Part shown: positions 3,985 to 55,370 of the stretch, piece after piece
How positions within the stretch are numbered: position 1 is the first letter of the stretch
How the letters are laid out: every line of letters starts with the position of its first letter
Assembly: GCA_017528375.1 (NCBI GenBank)
Contig: JAFXOY010000160.1
Location: 37,398 to 101,397 of the forward strand
DNA: 64,000 nt
Direction of reading: 5' to 3'
DNA from: Clostridia bacterium
GTDB lineage: Bacteria; Bacillota; Clostridia; TANB77; CAG-508
Position numbers and translations under genes: made by a program
The notes under the pieces: model-generated
Databases searched by the model: none
What the model saw: the letters and a program-made list of their open reading frames with translations, nothing else
What the model was told of the DNA's origin: nothing

Positions 3985-4023
3985 TGCACAGTTGAGGACG
4001 CGTCCTCAACTGTGCATTTTTTT
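3985..4023. terminator. bidirectional terminator formed by a single family B-like palindrome
   Basis: Perfect 32-nt palindrome TGCACAGTTGAGGACGCGTCCTCAACTGTGCA (3985-4016) followed by a T-run. It lies between the convergent asnB (stop 3981-3983) and the minus gene ending at 4022. It equals the family B unit with a paired G->A / C->T change. Confidence 0.8.
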
Positions 4024-14162: not shown

Positions 14163-14573
14163 TTAATATTCCTCAATTTTAACTTGAAGCTTTTCTTCAG
14201 TTGCATACAACTTTTCAACTTCGATTTTTGTAATTTGAGTATCATCTTTGAAAGCAAATTTATTCATTGCGTCCAAAACAATTTTTACAACATTATCAAT
14301 ATCTGGTTTTTTTGTTGGACTTATTTTATTTTCTAACATTTGCTCTTTCATAGCTTTACTTGCTGATTTTGGTACTTCAAAGAAAGCTGTAATACTAACC
14401 TTTGCTCGTCCCTCCATTGATTTGTATCTTGGGTATTTAAGCAAGAAATATTGTTCTACTAGACTTTCATAATCCTTTGTTCTTGTTGGAGTATATACCT
14501 GTCCAGTATAACTATTTAATCTAGGTCTACCTTTTCCAATAATCTTTGCTGGGACTTCAAATTCATATATCAT
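14163..14573 (-). CDS. rusA: RusA-family Holliday junction resolvase
   Basis: 136 aa containing GKGRPR...YTP..T..YE...KPDIDN..K...D. The ATG overlaps the upstream stop (TAATG). Confidence 0.7.
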   Translation of the reverse strand: MIYEFEVPAKIIGKGRPRLNSYTGQVYTPTRTKDYESLVEQYFLLKYPRYKSMEGRAKVSITAFFEVPKSASKAMKEQMLENKISPTKKPDIDNVVKIVLDAMNKFAFKDDTQITKIEVEKLYATEEKLQVKIEEY

Positions 14574-16084
14574 TAGTGCATCTCTCCTACCTTTTCAACT
14601 AATATCATATTATAAGTGTAATTTTCATATCCTGTTTTAATAGTTTTTCTACTTATTACATTGTAATTATCATTATTAAATACTGTATTGTAATAATCAG
14701 AATTTTCAGAATCTATAATCCAAATTCTTCCGTTACAATCATTTAAGAAATCTAAGTTAGTATATATTTTAAGTTGTTCTCCAAAAGCTTTGTATGCAGC
14801 TTCTACTCCCCAATCTGATGGGTTGTAATAGAACTGTTTGTTATCTGTAAAATTAAGCGATACAACTGAACCAGTTCCAAAATTTGATTCATCAAAAACA
14901 ATTACATCGTCTTGTTTAACATTTTCTTTTAAATATTCTATTGGTGTCATGTTGTTCTTGTCATATGCTTCCGTTATTTGTAAATAATTACTCCAAATTG
15001 CGAAGCCTAATGTGATTACGCAAATTGCGCCTATTATGTATTTATTTTTTTCTTTAGCTATACAATAGCTTATAAAGAAAATAAATAGTCCCGTTATTAC
15101 AAATAAGTATCTGAAATATAAGATTGATGTTCTTAATACTGCTGTAATAACAATTGCAGCTAATATTACAGCAAAATATATTGCAATTGATGTTATTGCT
15201 GCAACATTATTTTTATCATTATCTGTTTTCTTGCTTTTTACTAATCTGAAAATCGCATATGCAAACACTAAAATTGCTAAAACAAATCCTATTGCATCAT
15301 ATTTTCCTTCTAAATTACCAGAGAATTGAACTCCTATTAATTGGAATAATGTTTTTGGAAATTCGAATCCTATCCAAAAACCTTTTGAAACATTACTCAA
15401 TTGCTTCATAAAATACATTATCCATGGAATGTATGCAATCAATTGAATTACTCCTGATACCATAATTTTAACAATTGATGATATCTTCTTTTGTTTTATA
15501 AAATAGAATAATAACACACAATTAATTATTCCTGCTGCCATTAGACCATAATAATGAACGTATATACATGCTAAACTAGATAATCCAAAAATAATCCAAT
15601 TTTTAATTTTTGAATCATCTTTATATAATCTATAAGCATAAATTGCAAGAATTGTAACTAGCAGTACTGCTAATGAATACATTCTAACTTCTGCAGCATA
15701 GATGCATATAACTGGTAAGAAATAAGAGAAAAATGAAAATAAAGCACCTGTCTTTTCTCCAAAATCTTTTTTAATATGAGTAAATCCAAGTATTCCAAGT
15801 AATGAAATACATACTGATGAAAATACTCTGTATGCAATAATTGTTCCATTCATTGACAATCCAAATAAATTATGTGTAATCAAATAAATAATATGTAAAA
15901 TCCAATAATACAAAATCGGATGAACATCATTTCCGCCAATCTTCCATATATCAGCAAAAGATTTATCCGCTAACCCAACTGAGTATGCCTCATCAAACCA
16001 TAAATTTGGATGAAAAATACTTATACAGTTAAATAAAATTCCTATAATTATAATTGCTATATGTATGTTTTTTATTTTTTTCAT
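14573..16084 (-). CDS. polytopic membrane glycosyltransferase (GT39/ArnT-like, tentative)
   Basis: About 503 aa from ATG 16084 (GAAAGGAAAT SD). More than 10 predicted TM helices followed by a soluble C-terminal domain. The ORF-track start at 16141 lies inside a family B repeat and is rejected. Confidence 0.55.
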   Translation of the reverse strand: MKKIKNIHIAIIIIGILFNCISIFHPNLWFDEAYSVGLADKSFADIWKIGGNDVHPILYYWILHIIYLITHNLFGLSMNGTIIAYRVFSSVCISLLGILGFTHIKKDFGEKTGALFSFFSYFLPVICIYAAEVRMYSLAVLLVTILAIYAYRLYKDDSKIKNWIIFGLSSLACIYVHYYGLMAAGIINCVLLFYFIKQKKISSIVKIMVSGVIQLIAYIPWIMYFMKQLSNVSKGFWIGFEFPKTLFQLIGVQFSGNLEGKYDAIGFVLAILVFAYAIFRLVKSKKTDNDKNNVAAITSIAIYFAVILAAIVITAVLRTSILYFRYLFVITGLFIFFISYCIAKEKNKYIIGAICVITLGFAIWSNYLQITEAYDKNNMTPIEYLKENVKQDDVIVFDESNFGTGSVVSLNFTDNKQFYYNPSDWGVEAAYKAFGEQLKIYTNLDFLNDCNGRIWIIDSENSDYYNTVFNNDNYNVISRKTIKTGYENYTYNMILVEKVGEMH

Positions 16085-16100
16085 TTTATATTTCCTTTCT

Positions 16101-16217
16101 TGCACAGTTGGGGACGCGTCCCTGCTGTGCATTTTGCACAACTGGGGACAGGTAATTTTAGCTGACCCGTCCCTGACTGTGCATTTTGCACAGTTGGGAC
16201 GCGTCCCCAGCTGTGCA
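16101..16217. repeat. family B element, full length (117 nt, three hairpin units)
   Basis: TGCACAGTTGGGGACGCGTCCCTGCTGTGCA, TTT, TGCACAACTGGGGACAGGTAATTTTAGCTGACCCGTCCCTGACTGTGCA, TTT, TGCACAGTTGGGACGCGTCCCCAGCTGTGCA. It abuts the pfk stop codon (16218-16220) and ends 16 nt from the next start codon. Confidence 0.9.
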
Positions 16218-17363
16218 CTAGTCTCCTAAACAAATTCCTATATTACGTGCTGTTTTAACTAAATCATTGTCCATGTTAACTTTTCTGATATTGCTTTCTG
16301 CTGTATTACCTGAAACTGCGCCGATTTTCTTGTTGTTTCCAACTACATCTTCTAATGGTACACAATCTAATTTGCCATCTTTTATAACTGTTAATACATT
16401 AAATTTTCCTTCTAATGCCAATTCCATGGCTTTTGAACCATACTTTGTTGATAAGACTCTATCGAATGCTGTTGGAGTACCTCCTCTTTGAACATACCCT
16501 AAAACTGTACATCTTGCTTCTAGTCCAGTTAATTCTTCTAATTGTTTTGTAACTATTTGACCGATTCCACCTAGTTTTGTATTATCAACACCTGAACCGT
16601 TGTCTCTTGTTCCTTCAACTGTAATTGTTCCGCCTTTTGGCATTGCACCTTCAGCAACTACAACAATACTGAATTTTTTCCCTTTTTCCTGTCTATGTTT
16701 AATTTTAGCAACAACTTTATCCATATCATATGGAATTTCTGGAATTAATGCAACATCTGCTCCTCCTGCTATTGCAGATTCTAATGCTATCCATCCTGCA
16801 TATCTTCCCATTACCTCTAAAACCATTATCCTATGATGAGTTTCTCCTGTTGTGTGAAGTCTGTCAATTGCATCTGAAGCAACTGAAACAGCTGTGTTAT
16901 ATCCAAAAGTAATATCTGTACATGCAACATCATTGTCTATAGTTTTTGGAACACCTATAACCTTTATACCTTTTAAACTAAAATCTCTAGCTGACTTTTG
17001 AGTTCCATCTCCACCTAGTGTGAAAAGGCAATCAAATCCATCATTTTTTATATTTTCAACACAGATATCTGACATATCTTTATATACAACTTTACCATCT
17101 AATTGTGTAACTTTATAATTAAATACATTTGCATTTGTTGAAGAACCTATAATAGAACCTCCTTTAGGTAAAATTCCTGAAGCTTTTCTACTATCAGAAG
17201 TGCTTAATGGAATAAAGTCGTTTTTTAATAAACCTCTATATCCATCTATAAATCCATAGCATTCAACACCATGCTCTTCTGCAGTTTTAACAATTGCTCT
17301 AATTACTGCATTAAATCCCGAAACATCCCCTCCGTTAGCTAAAATAGCTACCTTTTTTATCAT
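16218..17363 (-). CDS. pfk: 6-phosphofructokinase (long form; GGDG motif suggests ATP-dependent)
   Basis: ILANGGDVSGFNAVIR, LGGDGTQKSA, PKTIDNDV, MGRYAGWIAL. The ATG at 17363 has better SD spacing (GGAGG + 8 nt) than the ORF-track start at 17369. Confidence 0.9.
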   Translation of the reverse strand: MIKKVAILANGGDVSGFNAVIRAIVKTAEEHGVECYGFIDGYRGLLKNDFIPLSTSDSRKASGILPKGGSIIGSSTNANVFNYKVTQLDGKVVYKDMSDICVENIKNDGFDCLFTLGGDGTQKSARDFSLKGIKVIGVPKTIDNDVACTDITFGYNTAVSVASDAIDRLHTTGETHHRIMVLEVMGRYAGWIALESAIAGGADVALIPEIPYDMDKVVAKIKHRQEKGKKFSIVVVAEGAMPKGGTITVEGTRDNGSGVDNTKLGGIGQIVTKQLEELTGLEARCTVLGYVQRGGTPTAFDRVLSTKYGSKAMELALEGKFNVLTVIKDGKLDCVPLEDVVGNNKKIGAVSGNTAESNIRKVNMDNDLVKTARNIGICLGD

Positions 17364-17450
17364 TTGCATGTCCTCCTTTGTTTTCCATTATATTCTTTAT
17401 TATTATACCAATATTTTGTAAATTTACAACAGGAAATTATAAAGTTTTAA

Positions 17451-26252: not shown

Positions 26253-26335
26253 TGCACAGTTGGGGACGCGTCCCTGCTGTGCATTTTGCACAGCCAGGGA
26301 CAGGTTAGCGAATATGATGTGTCCCCAACTGTGCA
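26253..26335. repeat. family B element, truncated (two units)
   Basis: TGCACAGTTGGGGACGCGTCCCTGCTGTGCA, TTT, TGCACAGCCAGGGACAGGTTAGCGAATATGATGTGTCCCCAACTGTGCA. It ends 11 nt from the spoIIIAA start; its terminal TGCA runs directly into the AAGGAGG SD. Confidence 0.9.
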
Positions 26336-38892: not shown

Positions 38893-39642
38893 TTAATCAA
38901 GATTATTCATAATTCTATACAAAGTTTTTCTGCTTATTCCAAGCAAATCAGCTATTTCATTATAGCTTAATTTTGATTTTTCTTTTAGTAAAATTGCTAA
39001 TTCTTTTACATGTTTTTTACTAATAATTTCTTTAATGTTTTCAATATTATTGACTTTTAAATAACTTTTAATTACTTTTTGTGGAGAAATTCCGCGAAAG
39101 CTGTAGAAATCCAAATTCTTTGACTTAATAAAAATATTTTTGAATTGTTCTAAATCTAGATTTAATAGTTCTAAAACTTTAGATTTTAAAATATAACTAT
39201 CTGATAAAAAAGCATTGTAACTTGAGTATTTATATTGTTCAGGCTTATCAACAATTTTAGCCTTCACTGGATTATTATGTACATAAATTATGCAAGAATA
39301 CAAGTAATGAAAATCAAATATTTGCTCACTTTTATATCTATCACGAAAAACATACCCTACTCTTTCTTTTTTATTGTTGTACCATTTGGCATAAGCTGTA
39401 TTAATTTTTTTCATAAACATAGATAATTCATCAACTTCCTTGTAATAGATAACCAAATGAACGTGATTATCCATGATACAATAAGAAATTAAATTAATAT
39501 TAAAATCACTTTTTTTCTTTTGCAATAAATCCCAGTATTTCTTTTTGCATGAATCATCTTGGAAAATATACTCTTTGTTTATGCCTTGAGCCATTATATG
39601 CACATAATTTGACACTAAATCTTTTCTAGCATGTCGTGGCAT
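38893..39642 (-). CDS. IS200-like HUH/Y1 tyrosine transposase of the REP-associated (RAYT/COG1943) type, with C-terminal HTH
   Basis: GGAGG + 8 nt then ATG 39642. MPRHARKDLVSNYVHIMAQGINKEYIF..., HUH motif in CIMDNHVHLVIY, Tyr region GYVFRDRYKSEQI, YVHNNPVKAKIV, C-terminal LSYNEIADLLGISRKTLYRI. 249 aa. Confidence 0.8.
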   Translation of the reverse strand: MPRHARKDLVSNYVHIMAQGINKEYIFQDDSCKKKYWDLLQKKKSDFNINLISYCIMDNHVHLVIYYKEVDELSMFMKKINTAYAKWYNNKKERVGYVFRDRYKSEQIFDFHYLYSCIIYVHNNPVKAKIVDKPEQYKYSSYNAFLSDSYILKSKVLELLNLDLEQFKNIFIKSKNLDFYSFRGISPQKVIKSYLKVNNIENIKEIISKKHVKELAILLKEKSKLSYNEIADLLGISRKTLYRIMNNLD

Positions 39643-39684
39643 ACTTTTCACCTCCTCTTTAATATATTTTTGATGAACATCCCT

Positions 39685-43510: not shown

Positions 43511-43720
43511 TTTTATCCCCTTGCTCCTTTCATTTTTTTCTTTATCTTTAGTAGTTTTCTCTCGTTTTTTCTACAAATATTCTATATAAGATTATTTTAA
43601 AAGTCAATATGTTTTTTCTACAATTTTTAACATAATTTTTCGTGTTTTCTATTGTTTTTTTTGCTTCAATGGTATAGTATAATACTAGTTAATTTAGAGA
43701 TTTATACTAAGGAGGAAATT

Positions 43721-44650
43721 ATGCCAAGAAAAGCAAAAGATAAAGTTGAAGAAAACGAAAAAATTGATGAGAAAAAAACTACAACAAAAAAATCTACAGC
43801 TAAAAAATCAGCATCTACTAAGAAAACTACTGTTAAGAAGGCTGAACCAGCTGTAAAAAAAGCAGCTACTAAAAAAGAAACAAATACTACATCAAAGAAA
43901 TCTACTACATCTAAAAAAGCTACTACTTCCAAAACAGCTGCAAAAACAACAAAAACAACAAAAACAACTACAAAAAAAGCTGCAACTAAAAAGACTACTG
44001 CCCAAAAAAGTACAGCTAAAAAAGAAGAACCTACAAAGAAAACAACAACCAGAAGAAAAACCACCAAAAAAGCTACAGTTGTTGAAGAACCTCCTGTTCA
44101 AATTGTAGAGTACTATGATTTACCATATAAATATGGAAATACTGTAGTAAGACTTTTAGCACAAACGCCAAAAACCCTTTTTGTATACTGGGAAGTTTCT
44201 GAACAAGACATAGAAAACTTTAAAAAACTATATGGAGAAGATTTTTTCAGCAAAACAAAGCCTGTTTTAATTGTACATAATTTAACTCTTAATAAAATAA
44301 ATGAAATTGAAATTAATGATTTTGCCAATTGCTGGTATTTAAATACTGAAGATTCTGATTGCAAATTTGATATAGAATTAGCAAGAAAATTTATTGATAA
44401 TACAGCAAATGATGTAGATAACCCGGACAATTATCTTTATATTGCAAAATCAAATAATCTTCAATCTCCTAACAACCACATTCTATTTGAAAAAATTCAA
44501 GAATTTGTGGTTTTTAGAAATGCAAGTAATGATAATATAATTAAGAAAAATATAAAATCTTTTAAATTCTTAAAAGATATTTATAAGTTTTACAAAGATA
44601 TGTATGATGAAGATGTTTTAAATAATCCATCATCACAATTTAAATTTTAG
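43721..44650 (+). CDS. DUF4912-like protein with Lys/Thr/Ala-rich basic N-terminal region
   Basis: GGAGG then ATG 43721. About 125 aa of KKxTTxKK low complexity. Then YDLPYKYGNTVVRLLAQTPKTLFVYWEVS, typical of DUF4912, which I recall as a partner of GH57 genes. Confidence 0.6.
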   Translation: MPRKAKDKVEENEKIDEKKTTTKKSTAKKSASTKKTTVKKAEPAVKKAATKKETNTTSKKSTTSKKATTSKTAAKTTKTTKTTTKKAATKKTTAQKSTAKKEEPTKKTTTRRKTTKKATVVEEPPVQIVEYYDLPYKYGNTVVRLLAQTPKTLFVYWEVSEQDIENFKKLYGEDFFSKTKPVLIVHNLTLNKINEIEINDFANCWYLNTEDSDCKFDIELARKFIDNTANDVDNPDNYLYIAKSNNLQSPNNHILFEKIQEFVVFRNASNDNIIKKNIKSFKFLKDIYKFYKDMYDEDVLNNPSSQFKF

Positions 44651-47386: not shown

Positions 47387-47519
47387 TGCACAGTTGGGGA
47401 CGCGTCCCGGCTGTGCATTTTGCACAGTCAGGGACAGGTCAACATCAATGTCCGTCCCTAAATGAGTCAAAAATGTCCCAAAATGAGTCCGTCCCCAAAT
47501 GTGTCACCAAAATATGTCA
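47387..47519. repeat. composite element: family B units fused to family A units
   Basis: TGCACAGTTGGGGACGCGTCCCGGCTGTGCA, TTT, TGCACAGTCAGGGACAGGTCAACATCAATGTCCGTCCCTAAATGAGTCA, AAAA, TGTCCCAAAATGAGTCCGTCCCCAAATGTGTCA, CCAAAATATGTCA. Its last TCA (47517-47519) is the ltaS stop codon. Confidence 0.9.
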
Positions 47520-55254: not shown

Positions 55255-55370
55255 TGCACAATTGGGGACGCGTCCCCGCTGTGCATTTTGCACAGCTAGG
55301 GACGGGTAAGGTTGCTGACGTGTCCCTGACTGTGCATTTTGCACAGTTGGGACGCGTCCCCAATTGTGCA
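55255..55370. repeat. family B element, full length (116 nt) between rfbA and rfbC
   Basis: Same three-hairpin architecture as 16101-16217, differing at roughly a dozen positions. The terminal arms TGCACAATTGGGGACGCG / CGCGTCCCCAATTGTGCA are perfectly complementary. There is a 1-nt gap to the rfbA stop codon. Confidence 0.9.

Follow-up and report, generated by a model that had tools for sequence, protein, structure and literature searches.

A palindromic repeat that we call family B is present in five copies in a 64,000-nt stretch of DNA from an uncultured ruminant-gut Clostridia bacterium (assembly GCA_017528375.1), which we refer to throughout as the window; one full-length copy lies at positions 16101–16217. 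Family B probably consists of non-autonomous repeats of the repetitive extragenic palindrome (REP) or REPIN type, dispersed in trans by RAYT-B, the product of a single-copy chromosomal gene for a HUH/Y1 protein of the REP-associated tyrosine transposase (RAYT) kind. The repeat family and its modular structure, the nesting of a gene with an intact Y1 site between the repeat's two ends, the synteny of that gene, its co-occurrence with the repeats, and insertion without target duplication are all observed here. The window corresponds to C52:37398–101397 of a 1.99-Mb metagenome-assembled genome (MAG; 29.4% GC, 187 contigs) that we call G000; its contigs carry C numbers, related genomes carry G numbers, and loci from relatives and metagenomes carry L numbers. 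An earlier note on the window had described family B as a REP-like triple-hairpin element that shares a core with family A, the dominant repeat of the window, and had listed five copies. All five were found (the copy at 47387 ends at about 47443), and the relatedness was borne out, a GGGGACG core being common to family A, family B, and a further repeat, family C.

A gene nested between the ends of the repeat

The earlier note had found no cognate transposase in the window and had proposed a search for a second RAYT paralogue with family B flanks elsewhere in the genome. Both the absence and the paralogue were confirmed. The only Y1 gene in the window, RAYT-A (38893–39651, minus strand), is a RAYT-type gene with family A flanks and a C-terminal helix-turn-helix (HTH) domain. 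A search of the whole of G000 with Pfam Y1_Tnp returned three matches: RAYT-A, a fragment on contig C153, and a 259-aa open reading frame (ORF) at C9:14485–15264. The last of these is RAYT-B, which has a copy number of one in G000. If the arms of the repeat are numbered a1 to a6, the left flank of RAYT-B reads a1-a2-TTT-a3-AGGTTAGC and the right flank reads GCTGACCT-a4-TTT-a5-a6; the bracketing sequence itself is TGCACAGTTGGGGACGCGTCCCCGCTGTGCA-TTT-TGCACAGCGAGGGACAGGTTAGC on the left and GCTGACCTGTCCCTCGCTGTGCA-TTT-TGCACAGCGGGGACGCGTCCCCAACTGTGCA on the right. RAYT-B sits in the “loop” of a family B doublet, and the 116-nt element is therefore equivalent to the two ends of the cassette minus the gene. 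The inverted ends of the cassette are ~57 nt long, include the motif GGGGACGC (a 7/8 match to GGGGWSAS), and abut the stop codon of the upstream gene on one side and the Shine–Dalgarno (SD) sequence of radA on the other. The concern that family B copies might be fragments of a larger insertion sequence (IS) or miniature inverted-repeat transposable element (MITE) with different true ends did not materialize: the RAYT cassette is the largest version, and it has the same TGCACA...TGTGCA ends.

What kind of protein does RAYT-B encode? It matches Pfam Y1_Tnp at 6e-13 and scores 59.3 bits with NCBIfam REP_Tyr_transpos (NF047646) versus 19.9 bits with IS200. A search of the PDB with the single RAYT-B sequence found nothing, and a search with a 53-sequence profile gave 4ER8 (E. 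coli TnpA-REP) as its first match. For the AlphaFold 2 model of RAYT-B (predicted local distance difference test score 85.8), the top Foldseek match is 4er8_A (E 5.8e-6, template-modelling score 0.70 on the target), with the IS608 and ISDra2 transposases ranking lower. Across 53 homologues, residues H60, H62, Y119, and N123 are invariant and P124 is conserved in at least 90%, giving an HUH motif and a Y---NP motif. The C-terminal 100 residues are helical, with helices at 219–231, 238–245, and 249–257 of the model. Eight of the 53 aligned homologues, including RAYT-A (33% identical to RAYT-B over the catalytic domain), match HTH_23, 4 of the 53 match HTH_28, and one (P0103) carries Bac_DnaA_C. 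RAYT-B is probably of the TIRYT or TnpA-Y1 subclass 2.1 kind, in which a Y1 domain is joined to a C-terminal helical, HTH-like domain. The remaining Y1_Tnp match in G000, C153:1685–1948, is class-1 and IS200-like (E 6e-32, 97 aa) and is situated at one end of a contig of 1953 nt. Most likely this match represents an IS200/IS605 copy that was truncated or collapsed.

The gene and its repeats are found together in relatives. The order of an RNase gene (beta-CASP/MBL), RAYT-B, and radA-disA is kept in the sister species G023, in G004, and at the metagenome loci L091, L093, and L095. In G023 and the metagenome species L091, L093, and L095, RAYT-B orthologues with 55–66% identity occupy the same place. 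Each RAYT-B locus is flanked by a local version of the repeat, with TGCACA, GAACA, TTACA, or GGACA stems, and the CAATTGGGGACGCGTCCC core is invariant among these species-specific repeats. Between species (G000 C9:14485–15264 vs L040, L091, and L093), RAYT-B is 56–65% identical, as against 82–90% for the adjacent radA. Judged by these identities, RAYT-B is evolving several times faster than its neighbours while being held at one locus. In G004 (L059:1301–1450), a deletion has left 49 codons of the RAYT-B orthologue and, of the right end, only the last 8 bases before the radA SD. G004 has no other RAYT-B-like match, yet it has >60 family-B-like units with diversified stems.

The distribution of family B is narrow. 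Among 41 relatives, matches to the repeat unit occur only in G000 (63), G023 (67), G004 (66), and G015 (4). Of 150 genomes from 50 genera of the taxonomic family, 148 lack the core 15-mer, and when 185,579 species representatives were scanned, only two further MAGs had exact matches. A metagenome scan recovered 66 loci from a handful of samples.

Modular structure of the repeat

Family B is built from one 15–16-nt arm sequence in alternating orientation. The earlier note had taken a 31-nt hairpin as the repeated unit; the actual unit is a 50-nt three-arm module, a1-a2-WWW-a3. In order, a module comprises a1 (TGCACARYTGGGGACG), a2 (CGTCCCNNYTGTGCA), a 3-nt linker that is either TTT or AAA, and a3 (TGCACARNNNGGGACR), trailed by ~7 conserved bases (GGTCAGC or CATCA), for a total of 50–57 nt. 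Two of these modules, head to head and 16–18 nt apart, make up the 116-nt “triple hairpin”. The invariant part of the consensus of 96 modules is TTGGGGACG/CGTCCC. With up to 2 mismatches, the TGCACAGTTGGGGACGCGTCCC unit has 63 matches in G000, 48 of them exact, while no match was found to a reversed control pattern; when up to 3 mismatches are allowed, this 22-mer core has 8 matches in the window and 0 in 100 shuffles of it. There are 57 parsable modules in ~50 intergenic loci of the 2-Mb genome. A separate parse of arm clusters gave 54 loci, of which 21 are single modules and 12 have six arms, the remainder being four-arm, two-arm, or irregular; the three-arm module is the commonest form. An Rfam search with family B returned no family at threshold, only sub-threshold matches to miRNA-like hairpins.

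The copies in the window illustrate this range. The six-arm doublet at 16101–16217 (117 nt) consists of two inverted three-arm modules: a1 at 16101–16116, a2 at 16117–16131, TTT at 16132–16134, a3 at 16135–16150, a spacer at 16151–16167, a4 at 16168–16183, TTT at 16184–16186, a5 at 16187–16201, and a6 at 16202–16217. It lies 0 nt from the stop codon of pfk (16218–17369, minus strand) and, on its other side, 2 nt separate it from the SD of the minus-strand gene that follows. The second six-arm doublet, at 55255–55370 (116 nt), is within the rml operon, with the stop codon of an NTP-transferase (rmlA-like) gene 1 nt away on one side and the SD of rmlC, a dTDP-4-dehydrorhamnose epimerase gene, on the other. 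The four-arm copy at 26253–26335 consists of a module, a1-a2-TTT-a3, to which a4 is added; it directly adjoins the SD of spoIIIAA (AAGGAGG, minus strand) at one end, and an ordinary terminator hairpin lies beyond the other. A single three-arm module at 47387–47443 (plus strand, end approximate), reading a1-a2-TTT-a3 with a GGTCAAC tail, abuts the SD of ruvB and continues straight into a family A repeat array. Consistent with the earlier note, which had placed the terminal TGCA close to the SD of the downstream minus-strand gene in four copies, the distance read from the sequence at 16101, 26253, 47387, and 55255 is 0–7 nt. The fifth copy, at 3985–4016, is a two-arm unit, a 32-nt perfect palindrome (GAGGACGCGTCCTC) with AAA and TTTTTTT flanks, located between the convergent genes asnB (plus strand) and a small multidrug-export gene (minus strand). 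The note had called it a bidirectional terminator. On the plus strand it matches the terminator consensus (a 17-bp stem followed by TTTTTTT), and on the minus strand the tail is weaker and the match poorer. With its 16-bp arms and T-tract, this copy is terminator-like and probably the clearest case of host use. Full-length family B elements have no T-tracts beyond the TTT(T) linkers. The elements at 16101, 47387, and 55255 are also present on independent sheep, bovine, and other gut metagenome contigs, at the same depth as their flanks, and hence they are not assembly artefacts.

Which arms pair with each other? Folding of both strands, as DNA or as RNA, gives structures far more stable than those of shuffles (z −9 to −15; ~−11 to −15 for the long hairpin). 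The minimum-energy fold, a long hairpin or a cloverleaf, joins the two outer units, which the note had described as complementary; it is not the note's row of three hairpins. Covariation was assessed on 96 distinct modules from G000 and G023 with 500 shuffles. For a2 with a3, in the register centred on the linker, the covariation score is 0.103 versus 0.074 ± 0.005 and there are 69 double changes versus 42 ± 7, with 0 of 500 shuffles as high in either case. For a1 with a2, no covariation was seen in two registers among the 96 modules: the observed score was equalled or exceeded in 454–492 of 500 shuffles, and at columns 7–25 pairing fails in 45 of 96 cells. Permutation of duplex energies gave the same contrast: a2 and a3 are matched to each other (p = 0.0005 in G000, <0.0005 in G023), whereas a1 and a2 fit their own partners worse than random ones. 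In six-arm elements, a3 with a4 is significantly worse than random in G000, and a1 with a6 is weakly better (pooled p = 0.02). In G004, where the outer hexamers vary (TGTGCA, TGAACA, TGTACA, TGAGCA, and TGGACA), 19 four-arm elements show nested pairing of a1 with a6 (p = 0.0002) and a2 with a5 (p = 0.013); in the same 19 elements, a1 with a2 and a5 with a6 give p of ~0.8.

These results support an a2–a3 hairpin centred on the TTT/AAA linker, together with pairing of the two outer arms. Three independent tandem hairpins, the register proposed in the note, were dropped, given the absence of covariation and the weaker-than-random pairing between a1 and a2 and the poor pairing of a3 with a4 in G000. 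The compensatory substitutions reported there are partly upheld, in that the signal exists for a2 with a3 and at long range for a1 with a6, and is missing for a1 with a2; the first example given, CACAATTGGGG with CCCCAATTGTG, is of the long-range a1–a6 type. The further claim that the hairpin is under selection goes beyond this signal. The halves of an inverted duplication are complementary from the outset; partner specificity means that doublets descend as units, and selection on the fold does not follow from partner specificity alone.

The two modules of a doublet are not combined at random in G000. All 12 doublets pair one TTT-linker module with one AAA-linker module, for which the chance is ~2 × 10⁻⁴ given the 30:24 mix of linkers. 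With this make-up, both linkers read alike on one strand, and the RAYT-B cassette of G000 has the same make-up. The G023 cassette, in terms of modules, is TTT/TTT, and the doublets of that genome are mixed. This pattern fits descent of doublets from the cassette ends of their own genome, with spread in either orientation.

Insertion sites

All family B loci in G000 are intergenic. The outer a1 end lies 0–1 nt from a stop codon for 15 of 57 module ends in G000 and 16 of 61 in G023, and an SD complement lies within 9 nt of the a1 end for 14 module ends in G000 and 12 in G023. Eight of the 12 doublets lie in operons, with a stop codon on one side and the following SD on the other, and the genes that adjoin copies include pfk, rmlA-like/rmlC, ruvB, spoIIIAA, and radA. 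There is no bias in orientation relative to transcription, with 5 doublets in the sense and 7 in the antisense direction. The abutment to stop codons and SDs may reflect either target choice or purifying selection, with a bias in which copies survive.

Sites were compared between G000 and G023 where the neighbouring proteins are ~75%–99% identical, mostly >85%. Common sites differ in architecture, for example 116 nt versus 65 nt. When filled sites are set against their empty orthologues, the TGCACA...TGTGCA borders are flush and no target sequence is duplicated; one such site reads AGTTAG-element-AAAAAAAA when filled and AGTTAA-AAAAAA when empty. Beyond the sister species, the pfk junction (window 16081–16220 vs L080–L085) is empty in G014, which has a 2-nt spacer, and in G015; it has a single 31-nt unit in G004 and other, unrelated palindromes in G007, G011, and G003. 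The sequence there is CCGGGACGGAGAAAATTTT... in G011, ATGTCCTCAATT...AATTGAGGACAT in G007, and a terminator-like hairpin in G003. Similarly, three sites that hold family B in G023 hold family A in G000 (C156:27136–27303, C37:16797–16894, and C112:55892–56066). Junctions occupied by differing palindromes look like permissive hot spots.

Two further sites were noted. In the position upstream of rmlC that corresponds to 55255, the metagenome contig SAMEA3663057_63, from another population, has a two-arm 31-nt unit (L156:10617–10650) where G000 has six arms, so that the number of arms varies while the site stays the same. A family B module in G023 (L010:1229–1277) occupies a place between convergent genes at which G000 has an ordinary bidirectional terminator hairpin (C155:16036–16101). 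Eight metagenome runs gave no sign of insertion polymorphism within populations at 16101, 47387, or 55255; their contigs break at the repeat.

There are also versions of intermediate size with unrelated inner DNA, at C12:6991–7286 and, in G023, at L006:618–1153. The latter is a 536-nt element with a family B module at each end, and its inner 440 nt are a large near-perfect palindrome. The idea that these elements are deletion derivatives of the RAYT cassette was dropped, as their inner DNA does not match it.

Proposed mechanism and alternative explanations

The mechanism that we propose is drawn by analogy from TnpA-REP and IS608 (structures 4ER8 and 2VJV). On single-stranded DNA, a2 and a3 would form a 15-bp hairpin with a 3-nt loop. 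RAYT-B would recognise this a2-linker-a3 hairpin together with the invariant TTGGGGACG/CGTCCC core and would cut at the sharp TGCACA and TGTGCA borders, and the piece would then be reinserted without target duplication. The surviving copies may mark the few tolerated places of a compact genome, right after stop codons and right before ribosome-binding sites. Some copies have probably been co-opted by the host; a role upstream of the SD in mRNA stabilisation is speculation. A more far-reaching version of this picture is conceivable, and we offer it as a tentative idea that may well be wrong: HTH-bearing Y1 proteins of the TIRYT/2.1 kind would keep REPIN-like populations in gut Clostridia by vertical descent beside radA; the copied unit in G000 would be a hetero-doublet with the same T3 loop in both hairpins of one strand, suggesting that both ends are recognised in a strand-specific, IS608-like manner; and once the enzyme is lost, as in G004, the repeats would be able to diversify while staying self-complementary.

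Several observations weigh against dispersal by RAYT-B. We infer the mobilisation of family B by this protein from the analysis of gene and repeats, and binding and cleavage are predictions. RAYT-B itself, at 59.3 bits, is below the curated NCBIfam cut-off of 80 for RAYTs, and it has no match to Pfam HTH models at E<0.1. Classical REPs carry GTAG at the foot of the hairpin, and none is present in the consensus of the 96 modules. No conserved target motif was seen outside the ends beyond a depletion of G at −3 and −2. All sampled gut populations are filled at three window loci, and no recent movement was seen. The complementarity of the inverted halves could be inherited by descent instead of selected. 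Subclass 2.1 has been found without REP-like partners (Quentin et al. 2018, PMC6006769). Lastly, the G000 MAG is 8% contaminated; the same pairing of gene and repeat is found in G023, which is an independent MAG.

Could family B instead be a set of RNA-level signals of the host, such as terminators, intercistronic mRNA stabilisers, or processing sites, that are under selection but not mobile, with the Y1 gene irrelevant? The position of the ends against stop codons and SDs in housekeeping operons (pfk, rml, ruvB, and spoIIIA) would suit such a role, as would the high stability of the hairpins as RNA, the terminator-like copy at 3985–4016, and the G023 element that stands where G000 has an ordinary terminator. 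We nevertheless consider this unlikely. Doublets occur in both orientations to transcription, full elements lack T-tracts, 2 to 6 arms are found at one orthologous site, a site filled in one species is empty in the next, unrelated palindromes occupy the same junctions in other species, and no Rfam family matches; moreover, such signals would leave the repeats that flank RAYT-B in six species unexplained. There is a still smaller chance that the repeats are sites for a DNA-binding protein of the host, nucleoid-associated, gyrase-like, or IHF-like, centred on the ACGCGT palindrome, with the HTH of RAYT-B perhaps belonging to a regulator instead of a transposase. A nucleoid, gyrase, or IHF-like role has been proposed for the bacterial interspersed mosaic elements (BIMEs) of E. 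coli. It is in keeping with this idea that the duplex palindrome CAATTGGGGACGCGTCCC is conserved between species and the outer stems are not, that RAYT-B has a C-terminal helical, HTH-like domain, and that a catalytic-domain protein evolves fast while being held at one locus. Binding alone, however, does not account for the dispersal, the presence/absence polymorphism, or the retention of the HUH and Tyr residues, and it is compatible with mobilisation by RAYT-B and not an alternative to it.

Two other explanations keep family B mobile and part it from RAYT-B. The Y1 gene on contig C9 might have landed by chance in an existing family B doublet, with the repeats spreading by other means or by recombination. 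Family B sites do behave as hot spots that collect other elements, as the fusions of family B to family A at 47387, in C112, and in C166 attest, and the predictive status of the mobilisation step leaves room for this view. It would, however, have to accommodate six species in which the same locus carries its own version of the repeat (TGCACA, GAACA, GGACA, or TTACA) around an invariant core, the restriction of the repeat family to genomes with a RAYT-B-clade gene or its stump, and the TTT/AAA make-up of the G000 doublets, which mirrors the G000 cassette; hence, we regard a chance landing as very improbable. Extremely unlikely, in our judgement, is an origin as a MITE of a DDE-type insertion sequence with terminal inverted repeats. 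The entire element is one long inverted repeat, its copy number and intergenic position are MITE-like, and there are the intermediate sizes with unrelated inner DNA described above, but filled and empty sites show no target-site duplication, no DDE transposase gene or parent IS was seen bounded by family B ends, the Y1 gene is the only gene found between such ends, and single three-arm ends are the commonest form, unlike in MITEs. Membership in the DDE-type MITEs was rejected on the same absence of a duplication and of a parent IS.

Relation to known REP systems

The closest described relatives of family B and RAYT-B are TIRtrons, in which RAYT-like TIRYT genes lie between long inverted repeats, often with GGGGWSAS; in some TIRtrons, the repeats make up families of moderate abundance with a REP-like arrangement (Di Nocera, De Gregorio & Rocco 2013, PMC3733652). 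TIRYT has been equated with TnpA-Y1 subclass 2.1, which has C-terminal HTH domains (Bac_DnaA_C, HTH_23, and HTH_28), and Y---NP is the class-2 signature (Quentin et al. 2018, PMC6006769). TIRYT, or subclass 2.1, probably also corresponds to the Group 1 RAYTs, which occur in Clostridia with only ~12 copies of the flanking 16-mer (Bertels et al. 2017, PMC5581495). The likeness to TIRtrons extends to a Y1/HUH protein that is longer than classical RAYTs and has a C-terminal helical HTH-type extension; to a single-copy gene with the class-2 Y---NP motif, bracketed by long inverted ends with a GGGG(A/T)(C/G)-type motif; and to the dispersal of the flanking repeat as singles, dimers, and clusters. 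Family B differs in its abundance (57 modules in 2 Mb vs ~12 occurrences of the flanking 16-mer for Group 1), in having GGGGACGC instead of GGGGWSAS (7/8), in its three-arm module with a linker-centred hairpin, and in its host, an uncultured gut Clostridia lineage. RAYT-B is a putative member of subclass 2.1. Family B and RAYT-B appear to fit the TIRYT class, with the copy number and doublet behaviour typical of true REPIN systems.

The REPIN–RAYT systems of Pseudomonas and E. coli are reportedly those described by Bertels and Rainey in 2011 and by Ton-Hoang and colleagues in 2012, with 4ER8 as the structure. Like them, family B has a single-copy, vertically inherited RAYT with its own repeats as flanks, inverted doublets that form long hairpins and behave as a copied unit alongside singlets, an extragenic location downstream of genes, and a repeat and RAYT that co-occur and change together; the catalytic fold of RAYT-B is closest to that of TnpA-REP. 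Unlike them, family B has no GTAG tag, and each “REP” is itself a head-to-head pair of arms, while RAYT-B, at 259 aa, has an extra C-terminal domain, scores below the NCBIfam RAYT cut-off, and belongs to a low-GC Firmicute. As for the features expected of a REPtron, we found an over-represented extragenic palindrome, a single-copy class-2 Y1 gene between inverted repeats, and inverted hairpin doublets; the GTAG tag and a score above the NF047646 cut-off were lacking. The BIMEs of E. coli, which are mosaics of Y and Z REPs, resemble family B in their alternately oriented palindromic units with short fixed linkers, and the two module subtypes of family B (TTT or AAA linker, with correlated variable bases in a2) are found in fixed combination in G000 doublets. 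The sequences are unrelated, however, and the subtype rule fails in G023; binding of gyrase, IHF, or Pol I is a feature of BIMEs for which family B offers no evidence.

A further comparison is with CGTC-tagged REPs (Di Nocera et al. 2013, PMC3733652), which share CGTC/GACG in the arms and an arrangement mostly as head-to-head dimers. Membership was rejected. In family B, CGTC lies inside the stem, its G-T-C being paired with GAC in 95–96 of 96 modules, whereas CGTC REPs have an unpaired terminal tag; the family B stem is 15 bp with a 3-nt loop, as opposed to 8–9 bp (with an A-T start) and 4–5 nt; family B has no CCA tail; and a candidate transposase exists for family B, while none dedicated to CGTC REPs is known. 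Miniature elements of IS200/IS605 (PATEs, with a class-1 TnpA of ~130–150 aa, multiple copies, and non-inverted ends) were likewise rejected because RAYT-B is nearer to TnpA-REP than to IS200, is present in a single copy, and has inverted ends.

Family B and RAYT-B are a further example of the known REP/RAYT kind and open no new category. To our knowledge, REP/RAYT systems have been studied almost only in Proteobacteria. Family B provides a clean, internally consistent case from gut Clostridia of low GC content, and one that belongs to the HTH-bearing TIRYT branch, which is poorly understood. Its abundance, together with its variation between sister species, is material for asking what RAYT-B recognises, and the intact gene in G000 and G023 versus the 49-aa stump in G004 makes a natural comparison. 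There are practical consequences as well. Family B breaks short-read assemblies at every copy, and where copies are flush with stop codons and SDs in housekeeping operons, calls of gene starts may err. For example, the longest ORF call downstream of the 16101–16217 element, 14573–16141, begins at a TTG inside the element (16141); the true start is most likely the ATG at ~16081 behind the SD GAAAGGA.

Other observations

Family C (GGACAATTTGGGGACGCGTACCAAATTGTCC) has ~25 copies in G000, for example at C112:13891–13944 and C124:7275–7326, and none in the window. It has no Y1 gene of its own in the G000 assembly, and a similar repeat (GGACAATTGGGGACGCGTCCCAATTGTCC) flanks the RAYT-B orthologue at the metagenome locus L095. 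The window also contains a direct repeat with a 15-nt period at 43757–44094, with 12 AAAAAAxCTACA-like copies, which lies within the ORF 43652–44650 and presumably encodes a repetitive protein segment rich in Lys, Thr, Ser, and Ala.

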